64,000 nt of DNA from contig JBAZUU010000001.1 of assembly GCA_041661275.1 (NCBI GenBank), positions 101,057 to 165,056 on the forward strand. Reading direction: 5' to 3'. Position numbers and translations under genes: made by a program. The notes below the pieces were generated by a model that was given only the letters and a program-made list of their open reading frames with translations, did not search any database and had not been told where the DNA came from. The number at the start of each line of letters is the position of its first letter. The first letter of the stretch is position 1. Positions 12,776 through 63,659 of the stretch are shown here, in pieces. This stretch comes from Parcubacteria group bacterium. Its GTDB lineage: Bacteria > Patescibacteriota > Minisyncoccia > Moranbacterales > UBA2206.

Positions 12776-13657
12776 ATGTTTTTAATCTTTCTAGCCAATC
12801 TTTTTAAGCAATACAAAGAACACTGGAAAAAGGCCACTTTGACTCTCGGCCTTTTTTTAGGAATCTTTTTCCTGTTGTTTAATGTTGTCAATTTTGACTT
12901 TAGTTCAGTTGCTAATAGCGATTCTAACGATAAAACAGAAAAGAAAAGCGCCGAGGAAGAAAATAAATGGCAATTCAAAAAGAAGCCTCTGTCTGTGGCT
13001 AACGCCGCTCCCCTTAGCGCCAACGAATGGACCAGGGAATATGGATTAGATGATAGTAACAATAAACCCGGCGATGATCCGGATGGCGACGGGCTGCCCA
13101 ACAAACTAGAGTATGCTCATATGACTGATCCTCTGAAGGCTGACACTGACGGAGATGGCTATTCCGATAAACAGGAAATAATCAATGGTTATGACCCTGA
13201 CGCGCCGGGAGACGCCAGACCCAATGCGGAAATAATCATCACCAAGATCGGTGTTTCTGCTCCGGTTATCTGGTCTAAAAACGATGATGAAACAAGCCTA
13301 CAGGAAGATCTAAAAAAGGGTGTCGTCCATTTTCCCAAGTCCGCCTCTCCCGGACAGGATGGCAATATGGTTATTTCAGGTCATTCCAGCAACTATGTCT
13401 GGGTAAAGGGAAGCTATAACTACATCTTTAAAAACCTCAATAATCTTGAAAAGAATGATGAGATTAAAATAAAGGTAACTCAACAGAACAAAAGAATAAT
13501 TAATTATACTTATAAGATAATTGATAAAAGAACAACCACCGCTGACGATCCATTCATCTTTGAACAAACAGCTAACCCGTCTCTTACTCTCTCCACTTGT
13601 TGGCCAATAGGCACCGCTCTCAAAAGACTTGTAGTGAGAGCAGAGCTGGTGAAATAA
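12776..13657 (+). CDS. Sortase (transpeptidase) with thrombospondin-type-3-like DxDGDG calcium-binding repeats
   Basis: Catalytic His (VISGHSS) and Cys (LTLSTCWP, the TLxTC motif). N-terminal TM anchor. DPDGDGLPN / DTDGDGYSD repeats. Immediately downstream of the LPxTG substrate. Confidence 0.8.
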   Translation: MFLIFLANLFKQYKEHWKKATLTLGLFLGIFFLLFNVVNFDFSSVANSDSNDKTEKKSAEEENKWQFKKKPLSVANAAPLSANEWTREYGLDDSNNKPGDDPDGDGLPNKLEYAHMTDPLKADTDGDGYSDKQEIINGYDPDAPGDARPNAEIIITKIGVSAPVIWSKNDDETSLQEDLKKGVVHFPKSASPGQDGNMVISGHSSNYVWVKGSYNYIFKNLNNLEKNDEIKIKVTQQNKRIINYTYKIIDKRTTTADDPFIFEQTANPSLTLSTCWPIGTALKRLVVRAELVK

Positions 13658-25230: not shown

Positions 25231-26064
25231 TTATTTTATTCTCTTGAGCTTTACTTTCGCCAATGACTTAAAATTATTTCTGGAAATCACTGGCCTGCCC
25301 GACTTTTTCTCAATATCAAGTCTCGCCCTGCCAGCCACCGTTCCGCCCTCAATAGCCACTCTCCTATTTTCGGGAAATGTTTTTGGTTTTTTTGATTTGG
25401 ATATTTCCGTCGTCGCTGTTTCGGCTAGCATATTTAGCACCAATTCCAGATTAGTCATATTATCCCGCAAATTTTCTTTTTTCAAGTCTTTGTGTTTTTT
25501 ATAGTCTTTTGTTCTCATTCCCGCCCAGGCAAAAGTGATGTCGTCTGTGAGAATAGCAAATATATCATTGGTTTTTATTCCTCGGTCATTCCACTCATTA
25601 GTCAGATCTTTTCTGATCTCGATGCTTTTTAGCCTCAAATCCACCCAATTTTTGGAATAACCTTTTTTGAGATATGTCGCCATCGCTCTTTGGATGGCCT
25701 TCTCCGGATCTTCCGTTTCTTCTACTCGCTCATAGCCAACTCGCGCCAGCCAAAGCTTAAACGGCTCGGCATTGGGCGAAGGAATAGACTGAATAATGCG
25801 AAGCATCGTTTCTGTGTCAGCTACATCAGTAAGATAATGCTTACCATCAGTTGCCTGCATTTTCAGTTGTACGATTTTCTCGTACACCTGACTTCCTTCA
25901 TTTTTTAACTTATTTTTCAAGTCCGACCAGTAACGTTTTGGTATAGTGCTGCCTGTTAAAATTTCCACTATATCTATCACGGAAAAAAACCATAACTCTC
26001 TTTCATCATCCCAATGCCTTCTAATTTCCCTGCCTTCAAAAATAGCTATCTTTTTTGTTTTCAT
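25231..26064 (-). CDS. DinD-like DNA-damage-inducible protein (Bro-N/RhuM-type N-terminal domain)
   Basis: Overall similarity of layout and several segments to E. coli DinD as recalled (N-terminal Bro-N-like WFFSVIDIVEILTGS; C-terminal VAIEGGTVAGRARLDIEKKSG). 277 aa. Confidence 0.5.
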   Translation of the reverse strand: MKTKKIAIFEGREIRRHWDDERELWFFSVIDIVEILTGSTIPKRYWSDLKNKLKNEGSQVYEKIVQLKMQATDGKHYLTDVADTETMLRIIQSIPSPNAEPFKLWLARVGYERVEETEDPEKAIQRAMATYLKKGYSKNWVDLRLKSIEIRKDLTNEWNDRGIKTNDIFAILTDDITFAWAGMRTKDYKKHKDLKKENLRDNMTNLELVLNMLAETATTEISKSKKPKTFPENRRVAIEGGTVAGRARLDIEKKSGRPVISRNNFKSLAKVKLKRIK

Positions 26065-34055: not shown

Positions 34056-34697
34056 CTAAAATAGTTTGCTTAATTCTGCTAAAACCTTTTTAGAAATATA
34101 CTCATGCCCCTGCTGATTAGAATGCAAGCCATCCCTGTAAAGATATTTCTTCTTCCATTCATCATCAGTTACACCAATGTCAACAAAAATTATTTCTTTT
34201 TCCAGACATATTTTTTTTGTATATTTTTGAAACTCTTTTTTCCTCGCATTGGTAAAATATGATTTTCTGCCATCGAAGGGACTAGTCTTTGGATTGGTTT
34301 TGGACTCGTCGTAAAAACCGCTTCCAACCATTATCACATGATTGCTAGATTTTTTAAGAAATTCTAGCAAATTATTCATCTCTTTAACATATTCTTCCAC
34401 TGAGGAAACAAAATTATCAGGTTCATCTTTTGCTTTGGCATTATTCCCTCCTATTGAAACCACGATTATTATTTCCCCGCCCCGACTATATCGTTTTAAT
34501 TGTTCAGGAAAACTATCTCTCACAAAATCAATAGTTGCACCAGAAAACCCAAAATTATAAATTTCATACTTCTCGCCGATTCCATTTTCAGAGTACATCT
34601 TTTTGTGAAGGGCTTGCTTAACCAAATCTGCCCAGCCTGAGGTTTCAGCTCCAACTCCATATACATGACTCGAACCAAGTAAAAAAATTTGAATCAT
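34056..34697 (-). CDS. SGNH/GDSL-family hydrolase
   Basis: GSSHVYG (block I), GGNN (block III), DGLHSNQQGH (block V). Start moved to ATG 34697 because the longer ORF would overlap tRNA-Gly. Confidence 0.7.
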   Translation of the reverse strand: MIQIFLLGSSHVYGVGAETSGWADLVKQALHKKMYSENGIGEKYEIYNFGFSGATIDFVRDSFPEQLKRYSRGGEIIIVVSIGGNNAKAKDEPDNFVSSVEEYVKEMNNLLEFLKKSSNHVIMVGSGFYDESKTNPKTSPFDGRKSYFTNARKKEFQKYTKKICLEKEIIFVDIGVTDDEWKKKYLYRDGLHSNQQGHEYISKKVLAELSKLF

Positions 34698-34716
34698 AAA
34701 AATATATATTAAAATG

Positions 34717-34788
34717 AGCGGGTAGCGGGAGTCGAACCCGCATCTTAACCTTGGGAAGGTCACATAATAGCCGCTATACGATACCCGC
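34717..34788 (-). tRNA. tRNA-Gly (anticodon CCC)
   Basis: Acceptor GCGGGTA/TACCCGC, anticodon arm TGACC-TTCCCAA-GGTTA, T-arm GCGGG-TTCGACT-CCCGC, discriminator T. Confidence 0.75.
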
Positions 34789-38362: not shown

Positions 38363-38878
38363 ATGCCTGAAGTAAGCCAACAATTAATCCCCCACGAGCG
38401 GATAATCGACAAAATATACCTAATAAGAGGCCAAAAAGTTATGTTTGATAGAGATTTGGCTGAACTTTATGGAGTAGAAACAAGAGCTTTAAAACAGGCA
38501 GTAAAAAGAAACATAAAGCGCTTTCCGATCGACTTCATGTTTCAGTTAAATAAGAAGGAGTTGGAAATTTGGAGATCACAAATTGTGATGTCCAAAGGCG
38601 ACCAAAAGGGATTAAGATGGCTGCCCATCGTATTCACTGAACAAGGAGTTACTATGCTTTCGGCAGTGCTTAAAAGCAAAACGGCTATAGCTATAAGCAT
38701 TCAGATAGTCAGAACATTCGTTAAGCTTCGCGAAATGTTGGCAACCCACAAAGAAATGCGCGAAAAGATTGAAAAATTAGAAAAGAGCCAAAATAAAAAC
38801 TTTAAAATTATTTTTGAAATAATCGCTCGTCTAATGAAAGAGGACGCGCTGCCAAAAGAGAAAATTGGATTCAAGTAA
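38363..38878 (+). CDS. ORF6N-domain (KilA-N/Bro-N-related, phage-associated) DNA-binding protein
   Basis: MFDRDLAELYGVETRALKQAVKRNIKRFPIDFMFQL and RWLPIVFTEQGVTMLSAVLKS are typical of ORF6N. 171 aa. Confidence 0.7.
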   Translation: MPEVSQQLIPHERIIDKIYLIRGQKVMFDRDLAELYGVETRALKQAVKRNIKRFPIDFMFQLNKKELEIWRSQIVMSKGDQKGLRWLPIVFTEQGVTMLSAVLKSKTAIAISIQIVRTFVKLREMLATHKEMREKIEKLEKSQNKNFKIIFEIIARLMKEDALPKEKIGFK

Positions 38879-52045: not shown

Positions 52046-52184
52046 CCGTCATCCTGAGCGAAGCGATCCCGCTTTAGCGGGAGAGCGCAGTCGAAGGATC
52101 TACTATAAGTTATTACTAGTTATATCACGTGGCAGATCCCTCGACTTCATTCGACTAAAAGTCTCATTCCGCTCGGGATGACGG
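52046..52184. repeat. MITE-like nested-palindrome element copy (CCGTCATCCTGAGCG ... GTCGAAGGATCTAC ... CAGATCCCTCGAC ... CGCTCGGGATGACGG)
   Basis: Same family. Lies between the PPIase start and the tsaE 3' end. The tsaE ORF in the track reads into it. Confidence 0.85.
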
Positions 52185-52588
52185 GAAAGAAAGGATATTT
52201 TTCTTTTATTTTCATCCATCCATTCAAAGCCTATCCACAAAGCACCTCTTGGAATAATTTTAGAAATCCTATCTGCCCATTCGACAATTATAACATTATT
52301 TTCGTCAGCAATAATTTCCTCCCAACCAAGATTTATTATATCATCTTTTCTTACTCGGTATGCATCAAAGTGAAAAATATTTTTCCCATATTTTTTCATG
52401 ATAACAAAAGTGGGACTTGTATAGGGACCTTTTACTCTCAAATCTTTCAATAATCCCTGGGTAAACGTTGTTTTCCCGCTGCCCAGCTCGCCAGTTAGAC
52501 AAATAATTTTCCCGCCTTTAATTTCTTGAGCTAACATTTCGCCCAGTTTTTGCGTTTGTTTGGAATTTTCGGTAATAAATTCTTTCAT
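52103..52588 (-). CDS. tsaE: tRNA threonylcarbamoyladenosine biosynthesis protein TsaE (C-terminal approximately 25 aa encoded by the MITE copy; true stop uncertain)
   Basis: P-loop LTGELGSGKTTFTQGL plus TsaE layout. The ORF continues to 52103 through repeat sequence. Confidence 0.8.
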   Translation of the reverse strand: MKEFITENSKQTQKLGEMLAQEIKGGKIICLTGELGSGKTTFTQGLLKDLRVKGPYTSPTFVIMKKYGKNIFHFDAYRVRKDDIINLGWEEIIADENNVIIVEWADRISKIIPRGALWIGFEWMDENKRKISFLSRHPERNETFSRMKSRDLPRDITSNNL

Positions 52589-53211: not shown

Positions 53212-54336
53212 ATGACTCTTGCTCCCCAGGAACAATTCAAAAACTTTCTAGATAAATCACAGGATGTTTTGATCCTTATCCCGGAAAATCCCAGCGCTGA
53301 CGCAGTCGGTTCTTCCTGGGCGCTCTATTATTTTCTGGAAAAAAGGGGCAAAAACCCGACCATCGCTTTTTCCAATCATTTGAGTGACAAATTCGGCTTT
53401 TTGACCAAGCCTTCGCGAATCCTCAATGAGATTTCCGGCGCCCGGGATTTCGTCCTTTCTTTTGATGTTTCTCGCAATAAGATCGGAAATGTTCGTCACG
53501 AAGAAAAGGACGGAAAATTTAATATCTATCTTACTCCGGAACATGGTACTATCAATCCTCGTGATTTCTCTTTCATTTTAGCCAAATTCAAATACGATCT
53601 TATCATCGTCATTGATTGCCCGGATCTGGAAAAATTGGGCAAGATTTATAATTCTAACACTGATTTGTTTTTTGAAGTGCCGGTCGTAAACATTGATTAT
53701 CGTTCTGGTAATGATAACTTTGGCCAGATCAATCTGGTTGATGTCACCTCTTCTTCATGCTCCGAAATTGTCGGTCGAGCCATCGAAGATATGGATATTT
53801 TAAGTATGGATAAGCAAATCGCTACCGCAATTCTCGCCGGTATCATCGGCGCCACTGACAGTTTTCAGAAAAAAAATACTACGCCTAAATCATTTCTTTT
53901 CGCGGCGCATCTCATGGACAAAGGGGCTGATCAGCAAGAAATTATCCGCTGGCTATACAAAACCCAACCTCTCCATGTTTTGAAACTTTGGGGTCGAACG
54001 ATGGCCAAATTGCAATGGGACGAAACTCTGAAAATCGTTTCCGCCACCATTTCCATTGATGATCTGGTGCAAAGTCGAGCCAACATCACTGATCTACCGC
54101 TCATTCTCGAAAAACTCCAAGAAAGCTACACCGACGGCTCTATTTTCCTCATCACTTTCAACGACACCCCCACAACTTCTGTTGCTCTTATGAAAACTGC
54201 CGACAATGAAATTTTCAAAAAACTTTATCTCAATTTCGGCGGGGAGCTGAAACGTGGCCTTCTGGAACTAAAAACCGAAAAGACTGATCTGGAAGAAGTG
54301 AGGAAAGGGATTGTGGAAAAGATAAAAATTTTATGA
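53212..54336 (+). CDS. DHH-family phosphoesterase (NrnA-like; DHH plus DHHA1 layout) with degenerate catalytic motifs
   Basis: Layout matches NrnA/bifunctional oligoribonuclease-pAp phosphatase. Motif I reads ENPSADAVGS and motif III reads IDYR instead of IDHH. 374 aa. Confidence 0.55.
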   Translation: MTLAPQEQFKNFLDKSQDVLILIPENPSADAVGSSWALYYFLEKRGKNPTIAFSNHLSDKFGFLTKPSRILNEISGARDFVLSFDVSRNKIGNVRHEEKDGKFNIYLTPEHGTINPRDFSFILAKFKYDLIIVIDCPDLEKLGKIYNSNTDLFFEVPVVNIDYRSGNDNFGQINLVDVTSSSCSEIVGRAIEDMDILSMDKQIATAILAGIIGATDSFQKKNTTPKSFLFAAHLMDKGADQQEIIRWLYKTQPLHVLKLWGRTMAKLQWDETLKIVSATISIDDLVQSRANITDLPLILEKLQESYTDGSIFLITFNDTPTTSVALMKTADNEIFKKLYLNFGGELKRGLLELKTEKTDLEEVRKGIVEKIKIL

Positions 54337-54465
54337 TTTAAAATTTAATACCCAAATTTTGAATTACGGACGTCAGTCTGTTTTTTTATTGTTCATCTTG
54401 TGATAAAATAATGATAACCAGATTAATAATTTCGTATTTTTGTATTAAATTCGTATTTCGTAACT

Positions 54466-57400
54466 ATGATAAAAATAATAAGAAAAAAAGATGCGCTGGA
54501 GGAATCAGAAAAAGCGGCTCTGACCAAAAAAATAATTTCCAAATTCCGCCGCAGGGAGGAAGAAGAAGAGACGTCCGCATATGCTGCGTCGATCAATTTC
54601 CCCTACCTCGACACCAATCTTGTTCCGATTTCCAATGACAATCTGAAACTTCTGACCGAGGTTGAGGCGAAAGAAAATGATCTGATCATCATCCAAAAAG
54701 TATCGCGCGTTGTCCATGCCATCACTACTGATCCGACTGAAGAAAAAACCAAAAACTTCATTGCGCAATTGCAGCAGGAGAAGGGCTGGCAAATGAAGAT
54801 TTTTGTCGTTTCCCGGTCAAATATGAATATCGTCCTGGAGCGATACAAAAAGATCATTTTTGTGGAAATTCTGGATCTTATGAGTCTACACTTAAGTCCG
54901 GAAGAACTGGCCAAGTTTGAGGAGGAAATGAAAGATCTCCTGACGCTGAAACTTCGGATTAATGAGATGCCGGTCACCCAGATCTTGAATATTATCATGG
55001 CCGGCGCGTATAAGCTCAAGGCCTCGGACGTGCATCTCGAACCCCAGGAAAAAGAATTTCGTCTGCGTTATCGAATTGACGGCGTACTGCAAGATGTAGC
55101 ATATCTGCCGCTCAATGTCTATAAGTCGATCATCACCCGCATAAAATATATGTGCCATATGAAGATCAACTTGCGCGATATCGCCCAGGACGGCACATTT
55201 GAATTCACGGTTCCCCTGGAAACAGGAGAGAAAAAAGCCGACACCCGTGTTTCCGTCATTCCGGGAAATTTTGGCGAATCGGCCGTGATAAGAATCCTCG
55301 ATCCAGAATCGATCAGAGTGACTGTTGATAAACTGGGTCTCACTGGACTGGCCAGTGAGATAATGCAAAAGGAAATTTTGTCGCCAAATGGAATGATTTT
55401 GAATACCGGGCCGACTGGATCAGGAAAAACAACGACGCTCTATGCCATCATTAACACGCTCAATCAACCGGACAAGAAAATAATCACCATTGAAGACCCG
55501 ATCGAATATGAACTGGCCGGTATTTCCCAAACGCAGATAGAAAAATCGCGTGGCTATACTTTTGCAACAGGTCTTCGAGCCATTGTCCGTCAAGACCCGG
55601 ATATTATTCTTGTTGGTGAAATTCGTGATGATGAAACAGCGGACATTGCTGTCAATTCATCGCTTACCGGGCACTTGGTACTCTCGTCGCTTCACACCAA
55701 CAATGCTATCGGCGCTATTCCCCGACTCATCGAATTGGGCGTGAAACCTTCTCTCATGTCTCCGGCTATAAATGCCGTCATCGGACAGCGTTTGGTGCGA
55801 AAACTTTGCGAATGCAAAGAAGCCTATGTTCCGGCGACTGAATCGATTGAATCAATAAAAAGAATTCTTTCTATCATTTCTCCTAAATCAAAAGTGGAAG
55901 TTCCGAAAAATATCCAAAATCTTTATCGCCCCAAAGGTTGTTCCAAATGCAATGGCATTGGATATAAAGGACGGATTGGAATATTTGAGATACTGACCAT
56001 AACCGAAGAAATTGAAAAATTAATTTTGGAGCTGGCTGGAGAAACAGAACTGACTATGACGGCACTTGAAGGCGGAATGATCACTATGCTTCAGGACGGA
56101 ATCATTAAGGCCGTAACTGGAATAACTTCCATTGATGAAGTAAAGCGCGTGACCGGTCAGGGAGAATTTTTGGAAATCATCTATGACAAATTGATGGCGG
56201 CGACGTTGGGTCGGTCAGTCTTGGTGAGTAAAAAGAATTTTGAACTGGCGGAAAAAACTATAAAAGATTTCAAAAAATTTCAGGAATTGATTTCTAAAGA
56301 AAAAAGCACCGACATCGCCAAAATTATTTTTGCCGCCGCTTCCATCCTTGGAGTAAACGATATTCACATTGAACCGCAGGCAGTGCTGGTCAAGATTCGT
56401 TTCCGCATCGATGGAATTTTGCAAGATGTCGCCACAATTCCACTAAATGAATACCCGGCCTTTTTAGGTGAGATAAAAATGCTTTCCGGCGTCAAAACTG
56501 AAGCGCGTCAGGGTGTGATTGACTCCCGATTTACCATTAAATTTGATGAAGAAATAAAAAACGCAAGAGAACCACAAACTGACGTGCGTGTTTCCATAAT
56601 TTTAGGCGGCTTTGGCGAAACGGTTGTGTTGCGTTTACTTTTCAAAACTACCTTGGAATATGATCTCAAAAAATTGGGAATACGCCAGCAAAATCTGGAT
56701 AAGATCATGCATGAAATCGAAAAGCCCAATGGCGTCATTTTGAACACCGGCCCGACTGGCAGCGGAAAAACAACGACCCTTTACTCGATCTTGCAGCATC
56801 TCAATAACCGGGAAGTGAAAATTATTACTGTAGAAGACCCGATTGAATATCAGATGGAAGGAATTTTGCAAACACCAGTCAATGACAAAGAGGGATATAC
56901 TTTCGTCAACGCCCTTCGACAGCTTTTGCGTCAAAATCCGGATATTATGATGATCGGTGAAATCCGCGACAATGAAACAGCAGTCGCCGCCGTGCAAGCC
57001 GCTCTCACTGGACACTTAGTACTCTCTACTATTCACACCAACAACGCCGCTGGAGCGGTGGCGCGAATGATCAATATGGGCGTCGCTCCTGCTGACATCG
57101 CCACTTCCGTCAACGCCTTTATCGCCCAGCGACTTGTACGAAGGCTGTGTGATTGCAAGAAAAAAATAGCGCCGACCGCGGAAGAAAAAGCAAAAATAGA
57201 AGCCACGCTAAAAAAGGTTTCGCCAAAAAGTGGCGTGGAAATTCCTAAAATCGGAGATATATACAAGCCAGGAGGATGCGTCAAATGTAATGGCATCGGA
57301 TACCACGGACGAATGACGGTTTCAGAAGTATTTCAGATCACCCGCGACATCCAGGAAATGATCACTCGCGGTGCCATGACGGTCGAACTCGAAGAAAAAG

Positions 57401-57501
57401 CTATTGAAAATGGCATGCTGACGATGGCGCAAGACGGCGTTATCCGCGTCCTTGAAGGCGAAACAACACTGTCAGAAGTGGAAAGAGTTACTGATTTGTA
57501 A
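54466..57501 (+). CDS. pilB: Type II/IV secretion-system ATPase (PilB/GspE family) with tandemly duplicated ATPase modules
   Basis: T2SSE N-domain, then two complete cores each with Walker A GPTGSGKTTTLY, Asp box, Walker B, His box and tetracysteine zinc motif (CECK...CSKCNG and CDCK...CVKCNG). 1011 aa. Confidence 0.85.
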   Translation: MIKIIRKKDALEESEKAALTKKIISKFRRREEEEETSAYAASINFPYLDTNLVPISNDNLKLLTEVEAKENDLIIIQKVSRVVHAITTDPTEEKTKNFIAQLQQEKGWQMKIFVVSRSNMNIVLERYKKIIFVEILDLMSLHLSPEELAKFEEEMKDLLTLKLRINEMPVTQILNIIMAGAYKLKASDVHLEPQEKEFRLRYRIDGVLQDVAYLPLNVYKSIITRIKYMCHMKINLRDIAQDGTFEFTVPLETGEKKADTRVSVIPGNFGESAVIRILDPESIRVTVDKLGLTGLASEIMQKEILSPNGMILNTGPTGSGKTTTLYAIINTLNQPDKKIITIEDPIEYELAGISQTQIEKSRGYTFATGLRAIVRQDPDIILVGEIRDDETADIAVNSSLTGHLVLSSLHTNNAIGAIPRLIELGVKPSLMSPAINAVIGQRLVRKLCECKEAYVPATESIESIKRILSIISPKSKVEVPKNIQNLYRPKGCSKCNGIGYKGRIGIFEILTITEEIEKLILELAGETELTMTALEGGMITMLQDGIIKAVTGITSIDEVKRVTGQGEFLEIIYDKLMAATLGRSVLVSKKNFELAEKTIKDFKKFQELISKEKSTDIAKIIFAAASILGVNDIHIEPQAVLVKIRFRIDGILQDVATIPLNEYPAFLGEIKMLSGVKTEARQGVIDSRFTIKFDEEIKNAREPQTDVRVSIILGGFGETVVLRLLFKTTLEYDLKKLGIRQQNLDKIMHEIEKPNGVILNTGPTGSGKTTTLYSILQHLNNREVKIITVEDPIEYQMEGILQTPVNDKEGYTFVNALRQLLRQNPDIMMIGEIRDNETAVAAVQAALTGHLVLSTIHTNNAAGAVARMINMGVAPADIATSVNAFIAQRLVRRLCDCKKKIAPTAEEKAKIEATLKKVSPKSGVEIPKIGDIYKPGGCVKCNGIGYHGRMTVSEVFQITRDIQEMITRGAMTVELEEKAIENGMLTMAQDGVIRVLEGETTLSEVERVTDL

Positions 57502-57505
57502 TTTT

Positions 57506-57988
57506 ATGGAAACGACTAACAAATATTTTATTCCCATAAAATTAAATAAGGACATTCTTGTCACTTATCACACCTCTCCCGCTCATATCGGCCGGCTTTA
57601 TCACTCCGTTGATTTTATCGCGCCTCTTGAAACACCGATCCTGGCCGCTCTTGATGGAAAGGTTACCGCTATAAAACTTGACTCAGATATCGGAGGATCA
57701 ACAGAAGATTTTGATCAGTATGGAAATTATATTGAGATAAAGCATGCCAACGGTGAATTTTCCATGTATGAACACATGCGAAAAAATGGCGGATTGGTAA
57801 AAATCGGCGATCACGTGAAGACTGGCCAAGCCATTGGATATGTTGGTGAAACCGGCTGGATGGCTGATCTTGGGCCACATCTGCATTTTAATGTCCATAA
57901 ATATACCCGCGGCAACGGCCCGACTGATTACGAAGCATTGAAAATTCACTGGGTCACGCCACCGCCGAATAAGGAAAATATCATATAA
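57506..57988 (+). CDS. M23-family (LytM-domain) metallopeptidase
   Basis: HxxxD (YHSVD) and HLHF motif with GYVGETG in the M23 layout. Start moved to METTNKYF (ATG 57506), just after the pilB stop. Confidence 0.75.
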   Translation: METTNKYFIPIKLNKDILVTYHTSPAHIGRLYHSVDFIAPLETPILAALDGKVTAIKLDSDIGGSTEDFDQYGNYIEIKHANGEFSMYEHMRKNGGLVKIGDHVKTGQAIGYVGETGWMADLGPHLHFNVHKYTRGNGPTDYEALKIHWVTPPPNKENII

Positions 57989-59080: not shown

Positions 59081-60082
59081 GTGATAACCACTTCCCACGA
59101 GCAAATTGACGACATAAATCTGGATTCTACCCTGCGCCCCCAAACATTCAATGAATATATCGGACAGGAAAAGGTGAAGAAAAATCTGGAGATCCTGATT
59201 GGCGCGGCGCGACACAGAAAAGAACCGATTGAACATGTTCTTCTCTATGGTCCGGCAGGCTTGGGCAAAACAACACTGGCCAACATCATTGCTAAAGAAA
59301 TGGGCGTGGGGATAAAGACTACTTCCGGTCCGGCTATTGAACGCGTTGGCGATTTCGGCTCAATTTTGACTAATTTATCCGACGGCGACATTCTTTTCAT
59401 CGATGAAATTCACAGATTGAACAAGTCTATCGAAGAAATCCTCTATCCGGCCATGGAAGATTTTAAGCTGGATATCATTATTGGAAAGGGACCGAGCGCC
59501 AGAACCATTCAACTCGATTTGCCAAAATTTACCCTGATTGGCGCTACAACAAAATTAGGATCACTGTCAAATCCCCTGCGTAATCGCTTTGGAGCAGTCC
59601 ACCGCCTGGAATTTTATACCAACGGAGAAATTGAAAAAATCCTGGAACGCTCTTCCAAAATTCTCGGCACCGACGTTCACAAGTCAGGTCTCCAAAAAAT
59701 CGCGTCTTGCGCCCGGCAAACTCCAAGAGTGGCCAATAGACTTCTGAAACGGGTTCGAGATTTTGCTCAAATTCATAACCATAAAACCGTTGATGAAAAT
59801 ATCGCTCAAAAAGCCCTCGAAATGATAGATGTTGATCATATCGGCCTTGAACCGGCCGACAAGCAGATCCTAAAAACTATCATTGAAAAATTCGGTGGCG
59901 GACCGGTGGGACTGGGAACTATCGCCGCGGCAACACAAGAAGAAATAAAAACCATTGAAGATGTCTATGAACCATATCTTTTGCAGATTGGATTTCTGGC
60001 GAGAACACCGAGAGGTCGCATGGCAACGGAACTGGCCTATAACCATTTGGGAATAAAATATATTAATAACACACTTCTATGA
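59081..60082 (+). CDS. ruvB: Holliday junction ATP-dependent DNA helicase RuvB
   Basis: [18 protein letters not shown] Walker A, DEIHRL Walker B, sensor and WH domains. 333 aa. Confidence 0.92.
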
Positions 60083-60934: not shown

Positions 60935-62602
60935 GTGAAAGAAAAAAATAACATCTTCTCGTCGTTATTCTTCCTGTTGCTAACAACAGTTTTTTTCGGC
61001 TTTCCAAGCGGCAGTATAGCAGACGGTAGTGATGTAATAATAAATCAGATAATGATTGAGGATTGTGAAAATACAAAAAATGAGTTTATTGAATTATATA
61101 ATAATTCTGACAATGACATAATTTTGGATGGATACAAACTGATCAAAAAAACGAAAAGTGGAAACAAAAGTAACCTTGTTTCTTCGGAAAAATTCAAAGG
61201 TACAATCCCATCTAAGGGATATTTTCTCATCGCTCCTCAAAAATATGCTCCTGCTATAGTCGCGGATCTCCCTTACTCGGTAGCAGATGCTTCAATTGCC
61301 GACGATAGTACCATTATCCTGTATGATGATCAGACTGAAAAAAATATAGTGGATATGGTTGATTATGGAGCAGTAATCGACATTAATTTCGAAACAAAAC
61401 CAACATTCAATCCGCCTAAAGGAAAAAGTATCGAAAGAAAAAATCATAAGGATACGGGCAACAATTTCGATGATTTTGTCCTGTCGGATTCCATAGCCAG
61501 AAATACAAAGTCCAAAACATCCGTTGACGGTATAAAGAATACTTCCTGCACACTTTCAGAAAACATAGATGAAAATATTTCCGTTGAATATGACAAAAAT
61601 ATTTATAAAAATATCTCTGCCGATTTTGACGTTGATTATATCGGATCGACTGATGCTACAAAATACACCTGGACTTTTGGCGACGGCCACAAAAGTTATC
61701 TGCAAAAAACTACTCACAAATACGAAGAGGCTGGAACATATGCAGCTAGCATAACTATCCGCGGCGATAAAGATGCTAAGAAAAATTTTGAAGTGGAAGT
61801 GGAAGAATATGAAGCGCCAAAAGTGAGAATTATCCGCCTTTCTCCCAATCCTAAGGGGGTCGACACAAAAAATGAGTGGATTGAAATTCAAAATGATTCC
61901 AAGAAAAAAATTGATATGATCGACTGGACAATCGCTACTGGCTGGGACAAACTAATTAATCACAAAATTACCAAAAAATTTGTCATTAAATCCAAAAAAA
62001 GCGCCAAAATCACCAGCAAGTATTGCGCTTTTACGCTTAACAACATCAAAAACAAAATTGAGCTGCGCGATCCGACCGGCGAAACGGTGCAGAAAATAAA
62101 ATACAACCGGAAAAAAGATAAAATTGAAGATGATGAAATTTTTGCGATATCTGGAAAAAATTGGGAATGGAATAAACCGATGAATAATAGCGCGCCGGAA
62201 GAAAATAATACGGAATTAAATTCTGACAACAATATTCCCCCTCTCCCCTCGGGAGAGGATGTCCGCCAAAATTTTTCTGAAAATTTAGAGCGGACAGGAG
62301 AGGGCTCTAAAGAGAATACGGGAGATATAATTATTATTCCTCAATCTGAAATAGATTCCGGCATCGGAAAAGCTACGCCAGATATTTCCTGGCAAAACAA
62401 AAAGGATAATCGGATAATTCTTATCGGTTACGGCACAACCATTAATACGCCAGTAAATTTATTAAATATTCCCCACGGCCAAGTTCTGGGCGCATCAGAC
62501 GAAAAATATTTCCCACCCGAAAAACATTGGGCAGTTTCGCTATTTGATAATTCAGTCAGAAAAATAAATTTTGGTTTGAATTGGGTTTTGAGTAGGATAT
62601 AA
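60935..62602 (+). CDS. Secreted protein with two lamin-tail domains (LTD) flanking a PKD-like domain; start codon and true C-terminus uncertain
   Basis: Signal peptide. LTD-like DVIINQIMIEDCE...EFIELYN and KVRIIRLSPNPKG...EWIEIQN. PKD-like WTFGDGHKSY...GTYAASITI. The 3' third contains a GC-rich hairpin repeat (62233-62300). Confidence 0.55.
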   Translation: MKEKNNIFSSLFFLLLTTVFFGFPSGSIADGSDVIINQIMIEDCENTKNEFIELYNNSDNDIILDGYKLIKKTKSGNKSNLVSSEKFKGTIPSKGYFLIAPQKYAPAIVADLPYSVADASIADDSTIILYDDQTEKNIVDMVDYGAVIDINFETKPTFNPPKGKSIERKNHKDTGNNFDDFVLSDSIARNTKSKTSVDGIKNTSCTLSENIDENISVEYDKNIYKNISADFDVDYIGSTDATKYTWTFGDGHKSYLQKTTHKYEEAGTYAASITIRGDKDAKKNFEVEVEEYEAPKVRIIRLSPNPKGVDTKNEWIEIQNDSKKKIDMIDWTIATGWDKLINHKITKKFVIKSKKSAKITSKYCAFTLNNIKNKIELRDPTGETVQKIKYNRKKDKIEDDEIFAISGKNWEWNKPMNNSAPEENNTELNSDNNIPPLPSGEDVRQNFSENLERTGEGSKENTGDIIIIPQSEIDSGIGKATPDISWQNKKDNRIILIGYGTTINTPVNLLNIPHGQVLGASDEKYFPPEKHWAVSLFDNSVRKINFGLNWVLSRI

Positions 62603-62644: not shown

Positions 62645-63106
62645 TTAAAAAAGTTTCTTTTGCGGGTCAGTCCTCTCTAAATGTTTTCTGACTTTCGAAA
62701 GAAATTCTTCCGAAGTCACAAGCGCGCTCCTTGCCTCCTCCTTACTAACCGGAGTCATAGGATCATAAGTAAATTTATTGCGTTTTTTGCGCATCTTATC
62801 AAAGATTTTTATCAATGAGTTAAATTTATCCCCCAATATCATACCGGACACTTCCACTGTGGTTTTATGTTGTTGCCCGTCATCCGGCCGCAAGCCATGA
62901 AGAAATATTATAGCTCTGGCAATTTTCAACATGCCTGTATAAGCCATGGCATAACAAGTTTCTTCATCGATAGCCAGGGTTTTTCTGGCAGCCGACAAAT
63001 TCTTTTCGGCACTTCTCATTAATGCTCTGACTTGATCAAGCCCGATACGCTCTCTCTTCAGAAACCCTTTTTGCACAAGCTTATTGAAGTAATTTTCTAA
63101 ATTCAT
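62645..63106 (-). CDS. HEPN-domain protein (toxin component of a HEPN/MNT pair)
   Basis: All-helical 153-aa protein with HEPN-like organisation. Overlaps the upstream MNT gene by 26 nt. Confidence 0.55.
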   Translation of the reverse strand: MNLENYFNKLVQKGFLKRERIGLDQVRALMRSAEKNLSAARKTLAIDEETCYAMAYTGMLKIARAIIFLHGLRPDDGQQHKTTVEVSGMILGDKFNSLIKIFDKMRKKRNKFTYDPMTPVSKEEARSALVTSEEFLSKVRKHLERTDPQKKLF

Positions 63107-63659
63107 TTTTATTTTTGGTTAATAATATATATTTTTTTGTTACATTTTGCAGAAATGAATCCTTTTTGATTTTTTTTAGAAACTCTGCCACTCCCCAAAT
63201 ATGATAGTTGATTTCCCGATCAATTTCTTTTTCTATTTTTGATATTTTAGCTATCAACTCATCTTCGTCGGGATTTCCAATAATGAACAGATCCACATCA
63301 GAATTTCCTCCAAAGTCTCCTTTGGCGTATGATCCGAAGATAAAAGCGAATTCGATATTAGATATTTTTTTCACTACCGATTCCAGCCCCGCCTCGATAC
63401 CAATAGTTTTCCTGACAATATTTTGCACATCAAAGAAAATCGGATCTTGTTTATTGGCAAAATAATAGCGTCGGCTGGCGACCATTTCCGATTTGATTAT
63501 TCCAGTTTTCAGCATTTTCTCCAGCTCTCGTTGAGCTGTTCCAGGAGACGCCGCAACTATTCTGGCTATTTCACTTAGATAAAATTTCTTATCCTCATTG
63601 GAAAACAGGAGTTTCGCAATACCTTGTCGGGTTTTTGATTTGAAAAATAGGTTTAACAT
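63081..63659 (-). CDS. Minimal nucleotidyltransferase (MNT) with N-terminal wHTH; antitoxin partner of HEPN
   Basis: GSxxxGxxxxxSDxD motif FIFGSYAKGDFGGNSDVDLFII. N-terminal HTH (LSEIARIVAASPGTAQRELEKM). 192 aa. Confidence 0.7.
   Translation of the reverse strand: MLNLFFKSKTRQGIAKLLFSNEDKKFYLSEIARIVAASPGTAQRELEKMLKTGIIKSEMVASRRYYFANKQDPIFFDVQNIVRKTIGIEAGLESVVKKISNIEFAFIFGSYAKGDFGGNSDVDLFIIGNPDEDELIAKISKIEKEIDREINYHIWGVAEFLKKIKKDSFLQNVTKKYILLTKNKNEFRKLLQ

Follow-up and report, generated by a model that had tools for sequence, protein, structure and literature searches.

A PilB/GspE-type ATPase with two intact cores in one chain from a Moranbacteria-like Patescibacterium

PilB-type motors are thought to be symmetric homohexamers in which opposite sites fire pairwise, and the coordination of their subunits is still debated; bacteria of the candidate phyla radiation (CPR) are held to depend on type IV filaments for attaching to hosts and scavenging DNA. 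A stretch of 64,000 nucleotides from a Parcubacteria group bacterium (contig JBAZUU010000001.1 of assembly GCA_041661275.1; hereafter the window) encodes at 54466..57501 (+) an ATPase of this kind with two complete ATPase cores in a single polypeptide, which raises the question of whether such a chain is genuine and, if so, how it could build a ring of six cores. With a probability of roughly 0.6, we consider that the gene is genuine and has been passed on vertically in a Moranbacteria-like Patescibacterium (CPR), that a unit of post-N1 linker, N2 domain (N2D) and C-terminal domain (CTD) was duplicated in tandem long ago, and that three protomers would make up one six-core ring.

Two complete cores in one open reading frame

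The open reading frame (ORF) begins with ATG, runs through 1,011 amino acids free of internal stops and is laid out as a single N1 domain (N1D), core A, a linker and core B (Table 1). The Pfam model PF00437 (T2SSE) matches at 720 bits against a gathering cutoff of 24.9 (E = 4e-217) in two stretches that each cover approximately the full profile, and the NCBIfam models for GspE and PilB likewise find two matching stretches apiece. Aligned with one another, core A (residues 140–563) and core B (residues 584–1009) are 46% identical over 427 amino acids (E = 2e-133), and the best stretch of their DNA is 328 nucleotides at 70% identity, so the duplication is old rather than a collapsed or expanded repeat. 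The N1D lies outside the repeat, and neither the alignment of the halves nor the repeat boundaries reveal a second one preceding core B. It is covered by the alignment to TIGR02538 (residues 16–563), carries a precomputed PF05157 match in many orthologs and is predicted by AlphaFold2 (AF2) as an alpha/beta fold with a predicted local distance difference test score (pLDDT) of 82–90. Inspection by eye of residues 1–140 found none of the 24-residue RLGxx(L/V/I)(L/V/I)xxG motifs that bind c-di-GMP in MshE, whose N domains carry two. A reading made from the sequence alone (the sequence-only reading) had proposed one N-domain followed by two motif-complete cores, a layout borne out by the double Pfam match, the alignment of the halves and conservation among orthologs.

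Conservation was assessed in 118 close orthologs for the motifs and in a larger alignment of 145, with residues mapped to Geobacter metallireducens PilB (GmPilB) through alignments and the published structure (PMC5424180; the chain index of 5TSG equals the native number plus 20). Walker A (GPTGSGKTTTLY, starting at residues 315 and 762), EDPIEY, GEIRD, TGH..HTN and the four cysteines are invariant or nearly so in both cores of the 118 close orthologs. Across the 145 sequences, invariance extends to the Walker A lysine (K321 in core A and K768 in core B), the Asp-box glutamate (GmPilB E357; E347 and E794), the catalytic glutamate (E395; E385 and E832), both histidines of the His box (H413; H403 and H850, and H420; H410 and H857), both arginine fingers (R271; R261 and R708, and R286; R276 and R723) and the inter-unit contact T411 (T401 and T848); the pore-loop glutamate E400 (E390 and E837) and a further inter-unit contact, R455 (R445 and R892), are conserved in at least 90%. 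The zinc cysteines of both cores are invariant among the orthologs. In windows of 25 residues, the two halves are equally conserved within the Moranbacteria clade, and the N1D and the inter-core linker are the least conserved parts. Further out in evolution, core A has changed less than core B, and it is also the one nearer to the closest single-core ortholog. The sequence-only reading had asked whether one half might have degenerated; in the alignments of the halves to each other and to GmPilB, the catalytic residues are intact in both, and the two cores look catalytically competent, with all residues for ATP binding and hydrolysis kept.

One position differs consistently between the cores. 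GmPilB R257, which forms a salt bridge to the Asp-box glutamate in the open, ATP-bound interface (PMC5424180), corresponds in core A to T244 (55195–55197), with threonine in 108 of the 118 close orthologs and arginine in none, and in core B to R688 (56527–56529), an arginine in all 118. In distant Paceibacteria double-core proteins both cores have arginine at this position, and certain single-core PilBs lack it. T244 was also considered as the counterpart of the arginine finger R271 and rejected, given that it aligns with R257 and both canonical fingers are intact. The asymmetry hints at a non-equivalence of the two sites that is specific to the Moranbacteria clade, which falls short of proving a dead site.

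Membership of the PilB/GspE clade

The nearest solved relatives by sequence and fold come from bacteria: PilB of Geobacter, PilF of Thermus, and GspE. The AF2 model has a mean pLDDT of 84 and a target-normalised TM-score of about 0.9 to PilB, PilF and GspE structures, and at most about 36% of the query is spanned by any single PDB chain. The best NCBIfam model for each core is GspE TIGR02533 (466 bits for N1D plus core A and 407 bits for core B; cutoff 630.25), followed by PilB TIGR02538 (456 and 384 bits; cutoff 675.65), ComGA NF041000 for the competence pilus ATPase (242 and 224 bits; cutoff 300) and PilT TIGR01420 (186 and 164 bits; cutoff 319), none of which reaches its cutoff. The archaeal FlaI model NF058587 scores 116 bits (cutoff 550). 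The whole protein scores 827 against TIGR02538, but this is the sum of two cores and the pass is therefore only apparent.

The zinc tetracysteine motif is a mark of the PilB/GspE clade and not of the FlaI/GspE2 clade (McCallum 2017, PMC5424180). Each core does have two cysteine pairs, as had been proposed, but the first pair is CxC in this protein's own clade and takes the canonical CxxC form in distant relatives. The further suggestion of an archaeal-style ATPase is not supported, given that the closest proteins in sequence and in fold are bacterial, the FlaI model falls far below its cutoff and the zinc motif occurs in both cores. Nor does the protein match the class of PilT/PilU retraction ATPases, which have neither N1D nor zinc motif, both of which are present here. 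By its motifs, N1D and zinc site the protein is a member of the PilB/GspE clade to which no specific system can be assigned.

Distribution and origin of the duplication

The 120 top matches from a search of 5.8 billion proteins are all 1,004–1,055 amino acids long, with 66–87% identity and approximately 100% query coverage, except for one partial sequence and a triple-core protein (P0004), and their named members belong to Moranbacteria (Moraniibacteriota), Parcubacteria, Pacebacteria or Patescibacteria. Seeding the search with a relative returned approximately 105 further clusters of equal length, so that the double-core architecture (about 1,005–1,030 amino acids) is represented by more than 230 clusters at the 90% identity level from independent assemblies (NCBI, JGI, ENA and Logan), mostly of Moranbacteria, Parcubacteria and Paceibacterota. 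When 1.84 billion representatives of 50% identity clusters were scanned exhaustively with HMMER, approximately 14 full-length double-core representatives (978–1,018 amino acids, 38–52% identical to the query) headed the ranking, followed by ordinary single-core PilBs; the named ones are only Parcubacteria GW2011_GWA2_47_8 and Candidatus Paceibacterota. The architecture is thus common in its own clade and rare in bacteria as a whole, in agreement with the earlier remark that it is unusual for bacteria. The former protein was deposited in 2015 as 'General secretory pathway protein E', so two-core sequences have been publicly available for years with generic annotations.

A neighbour-joining tree of the individual cores places most A cores together and most B cores together, with weak support (bootstrap 35% and 11%, respectively). 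Two double-core proteins depart from this pattern: in P0127 (L012 8001–10985) and P0132 (L013 3226–6213), both at the same syntenic locus as the query ATPase, the A core has the B core of its own protein as its sister in 100 of 100 bootstrap replicates, and the two are 55% and 74% identical to one another, respectively. A linker motif, G-x-x-[EDY]-[FY]-[LVI]-x-x-[ILM]-Y...L-x-R-[GS], is common to the Moranbacteria and Paceibacteria double-core proteins and does not occur in P0127 and P0132, which suggests that the Moranbacteria and Paceibacteria proteins go back to one common duplication. In all three cases the repeat starts just past the N1D (residue 120–140) and ends at the C terminus, and the simplest reading of these sequences would be at least three independent tandem duplications at one locus with the same boundary. 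Such recurrence points to a benefit under selection or to a strong constraint on structure.

The triple-core relative P0004 (1,460 amino acids, three intact cores; JGI 3300022698, contig Ga0248662_100121, L001 10001–14383) occupies the same syntenic position. The linker and N2D of its middle core are B-like and the C-terminal part is A-like, the signature of an unequal crossover (that is, A-[B/A]-B). A chimera of two species was considered and ruled out, as every segment is nearest to P0319 (56–66% identity); together with the 44–58% identity of its cores to one another, the single nearest relative indicates that P0004 is neither a recent mis-assembly nor such a chimera. As two- and three-core forms sum to six, this protein also suggests a benefit or constraint.

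A proposed three-protomer ring and its alternatives

In the PilB hexamer, the N2D of one chain sits rigidly on the CTD of its neighbour to form a 'packing unit'; ATP binds at the interfaces of these units, and sites facing each other across the ring fire simultaneously in a C2 cycle (PMC5424180). By the same geometry, the tandem chain would be arranged as N1-N2D_A ~ [CTD_A·N2D_B] ~ CTD_B. CTD_A and N2D_B would make a packing unit within the chain and CTD_B would contact N2D_A of the following protomer, such that three protomers could close a pseudo-hexameric ring in the order A-B-A-B-A-B. The sequence-only reading had suggested a trimer-of-dimers motor, which is plausible. Such a ring would carry three N1 anchors, not six, to a PilM/GspL-type platform, and the two opposite sites that fire together in the C2 rotary cycle would always be of different types, A and B. 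For the triple-core P0004, two protomers would suffice to form a truly C2 ring. We infer from the sequences that the three-protomer pseudo-hexameric ring is the best reading, because the two-core and three-core forms both divide six and because the hybrid core of P0004, if CTD(n) packs on N2D(n+1), yields only the two native interface types. That the cores would share a single ring is favoured because both keep the pore-loop residue and because the linker is conserved and partly structured, with predicted helices at 566–580, 589–598 and 602–611 and a low-confidence hinge at 576–581 in the AF2 model.

Several points weigh against this reading. The AF2 models are of monomers; the whole chain reaches a predicted TM-score (pTM) of 0.51 and the CTD_A-linker-N2D_B construct one of 0.63, and confidence within the domains is good, but the geometry between the cores is not fixed. 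Assignment to a pilus machine is by homology alone because pil genes occur neither in the window nor at 11 related loci, and the separate cores remain below the NCBIfam cutoffs for PilB, GspE and ComGA. The single origin of the main double-core family is weakly supported in the neighbour-joining tree, at the bootstrap of 35%; gene conversion between cores could mimic independent duplications in P0127 and P0132; and the triple-core P0004 is a database singleton on one metagenome contig.

Other explanations of the double core bear on these results to different degrees. That the chain is an artefact of assembly or annotation (that is, a mis-joined tandem repeat or a read-through of two adjacent genes) is hardly conceivable; nothing beyond the a priori concern speaks for it, and the concern, which the sequence-only reading had raised, is excluded by the divergence of the halves in protein and DNA, the unbroken frame and the more than 230 orthologous clusters with equal length and junction, where the linker motif is conserved. 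A fusion of an extension motor (PilB) with a retraction motor (PilT) could be imagined because both are commonly encoded in CPR genomes (PMC6744442), but both cores are of the PilB/GspE type with the zinc tetracysteine motif that PilT lacks (PMC5424180), the closest paralog of each core is the other and the PilT scores are far below the cutoff, which leaves this fusion very improbable.

Two further arrangements would accept a genuine pair of PilB/GspE-type cores, and we regard both as unlikely. Six protomers could instead form a stacked double ring, with a coaxial homohexamer of A cores on one of B cores as in KaiC, ClpB/p97 and EccC; tandem P-loop ATPases often stack, the head-to-tail link from the C terminus of core A to the N terminus of N2D_B is geometrically natural and the AF2 models are compatible with stacking. 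In the current PilB model, however, the pore is occupied by PilC, past which nothing is threaded (PMC5424180), so a distal ring would have no obvious substrate, core B nonetheless keeps the pore-loop glutamate and all catalytic residues, and the hybrid middle core of P0004 would need a non-native homo-ring interface between N2D_B and CTD_A. The other arrangement is a division of labour in which one core would be non-catalytic or regulatory and would only bind nucleotide, as the alpha subunits of F1 do. In favour of this, core B diverges faster than core A at greater evolutionary depth (for example, 36% versus 46% identity to the query cores in P0134), some B cores of distant double-core representatives have lost the RxRIDG arginines or the zinc cysteines, and the Moranbacteria clade shows the T244/R688 asymmetry. 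Yet in this clade neither core varies in the Walker A lysine, Asp-box glutamate, catalytic glutamate, either histidine or either canonical arginine finger, all of which are retained in the distant representatives too, and the R257 position is also replaced in some single-core PilBs.

Genomic context

For the genomic setting, essentially all sizeable ORFs of the window were compared with Pfam and searched for pilin motifs, and related loci were read to 8–10 kb and compared by tblastn. In the window, the ATPase follows HolA (40239), DUF3048, Fpg, PolA (48130), cyclophilin, TsaE and a DHH-family gene and precedes an M23 peptidase, RuvB, bPH and an LTD/PKD-domain protein. The order HolA-DUF3048-Fpg-PolA-TsaE-(DHH)-ATPase-RuvB-bPH-(LTD/PKD) is kept across Patescibacteria (window 40239–62602; L001–L006 and L010–L015) with ATPases that are 38–55% identical, and, apart from minor gaps or local rearrangements, was seen in each of the related CPR loci read, including those of double-core proteins only 40% identical to the query and those of the four nearest single-core relatives (P0135, P0140, P0153 and P0155). 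As the same slot holds either a single-core or a double-core ATPase, this is one orthologous locus across Patescibacteria.

Table 1 Domains of the double-core ATPase and neighbouring genes (window coordinates).
Feature	Coordinates	Strand	Residues and remarks
N1 domain (GSPII/T2SSE_N-type)	54508..54855	+	About residues 15–130; single, outside the repeat
N2D of core A	54973..55320	+	About residues 170–285; RxRIDG, arginine fingers R261 and R276, T244 (GmPilB R257 position)
CTD of core A	55348..56157	+	About residues 295–564; Walker A 315–322, EDPIEY 343–348, GEIRD 384–388, His box 401–412, C448/C450/C492/C495
Inter-core linker	56158..56304	+	About residues 565–613; conserved motif G564, F568, L569, Y573, L576, M577, L581
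N2D of core B	56305..56655	+	About residues 614–730; R645/R647, R688 (GmPilB R257 position), arginine fingers R708 and R723
CTD of core B	56683..57498	+	About residues 740–1011; Walker A 762–769, EDPIEY 790–795, GEIRD 831–835, His box 848–859, C895/C897/C938/C941
TsaE	52103..52588	-	Conserved divergent upstream neighbour
DHH-family gene, weakly NrnA-like	53212..54336	+	Immediately precedes the ATPase here and in 7 of 11 related loci
M23 peptidase	57506..57988	+	Internal ATG 4 nt past the ATPase stop; longest ORF, from TTG 57452, overlaps the ATPase 3' end by 50 nt
RuvB	59081..60082	+	Conserved; follows the ATPase in 8 related loci and precedes it in L001
LTD/PKD-domain protein, secreted-looking	60935-62602		Conserved neighbour in L001 and L005

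The sequence-only reading had suggested looking for pilus genes nearby, and neither the Pfam scan nor the pilin-motif search found pilC, pilM/N/O, pilD, pilT or a pilin gene in the 64-kb window; nor were pil genes found within 8–10 kb of the ATPase in the 11 related CPR loci. At one single-core ortholog locus (L010 4605–5819), a 404-amino-acid protein with a T4SS_pilin (PF18895) match adjoins RuvB. CPR genomes in general have clustered pilB, pilT, pilC and pilM/N/O (PMC6744442), and Paceibacteria have pilBCDMT clusters (PMC9763046); given these clusters elsewhere, the double-core ATPase may be a separate paralog. Which filament it drives (that is, a pilus, a competence pseudopilus or a secretion pseudopilus) is not decidable from the 64-kb window. 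The association of the ATPase with the DHH phosphoesterase and recombination genes could be either functional or merely inherited.

The M23 peptidase may be co-transcribed with the ATPase; tblastn did not find it beside the ATPase in the related loci. Between the DHH gene and the ATPase start (54366–54440) lie a hairpin that resembles a terminator and has a T-run and, after it, an extended -10-like element, TGTGATAAAAT; from this putative element, the ATPase gene may have its own promoter. Elsewhere in the window, genes resembling those of mobile elements or defence systems (Fic, BRO-N, ORF6N and HEPN; 456–1526, 25231–26064, 38363–38878 and 62645–63659) lie among housekeeping genes, and the HEPN gene adjoins a small overlapping ORF (63081–63659) with which it possibly forms a toxin-antitoxin pair. 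A sortase with TSP3 repeats (12776–13657) and the LTD/PKD protein suggest cell-surface functions. The 5' end of a GDSL-lipase ORF (34056..34763, -) overlaps tRNA-Gly(CCC) (34716–34788), and its true start is probably further in.

Implications and comparison with known systems

The literature searched, including a 2024 PilB review and an MshEN census paper, holds no description of a PilB/GspE protein with tandem ATPase cores; relative to that literature, the fold and chemistry are known, and what appears to be new is the covalent joining of several cores, the recurrence of this architecture and its location away from pilus genes. A broader picture, which we offer tentatively and hold to be possible but doubtful, is that of an ancient PilB-like lineage of Patescibacteria residing in a DNA-repair and housekeeping block, in which a homohexamer would repeatedly have been turned into covalent dimers, and once into a trimer, to give rings of fixed order with specialised, non-equivalent sites and half the N1 anchors. 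If this is true, the protein would be a natural 'linked-subunit' PilB motor that permits direct tests of the C2 rotary model and that may serve DNA uptake rather than classical pili. Two diverged, intact cores in one chain would fix the order of subunits in the ring, so that cores could be mutated singly without the engineered linked constructs that were needed for ClpX. The protein also delineates a conserved PilB-like lineage of CPR bacteria whose genes lie apart from pilus genes.

Compared with PilB of Geobacter metallireducens and G. sulfurreducens (5TSH, 5TSG, 5ZFR and 6OLJ), the protein shares the N1D-N2D-CTD order, the catalytic motifs and the zinc tetracysteine, and each core is 43% identical with a target-normalised TM-score of 0.9. 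However, a PilB chain contains a single core and its homohexamer six N1Ds, whereas here each chain has two cores and one N1D, the gene is not beside pilC or pilM and each core falls under the PilB equivalog cutoff. GspE/EpsE (1P9R, 4KSR and 4PHT) is similar in fold and motifs and provides the best NCBIfam model for each core, but GspE is single-core and the scores here stay under its cutoff. CPR bacteria are also reported to have neither an envelope of the Gram-negative type nor the outer-membrane secretin PilQ (PMC6744442), and this speaks against a type II secretion system of the classical kind.

Thermus thermophilus PilF (5OIU and 6F8L) is a good match to the core fold and resembles the present protein as a PilB homolog elaborated by internal duplication. 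In PilF, the N-terminal GSPII domains were multiplied and one ATPase core was kept, whereas here the ATPase core was duplicated and the N1D stayed single. No tandem-core example from the PilT/VirB11-like family was found among PDB chains or in the literature searched. Outside this family, the tandem-ATPase rings of KaiC, ClpB/p97 and EccC are stacked, and F1 alpha3beta3 and engineered covalent ClpX have subunits that alternate or are linked within one ring. These systems share with the double-core ATPase the presence of multiple P-loop modules per chain or an alternation within the ring, but they belong to other ATPase families.

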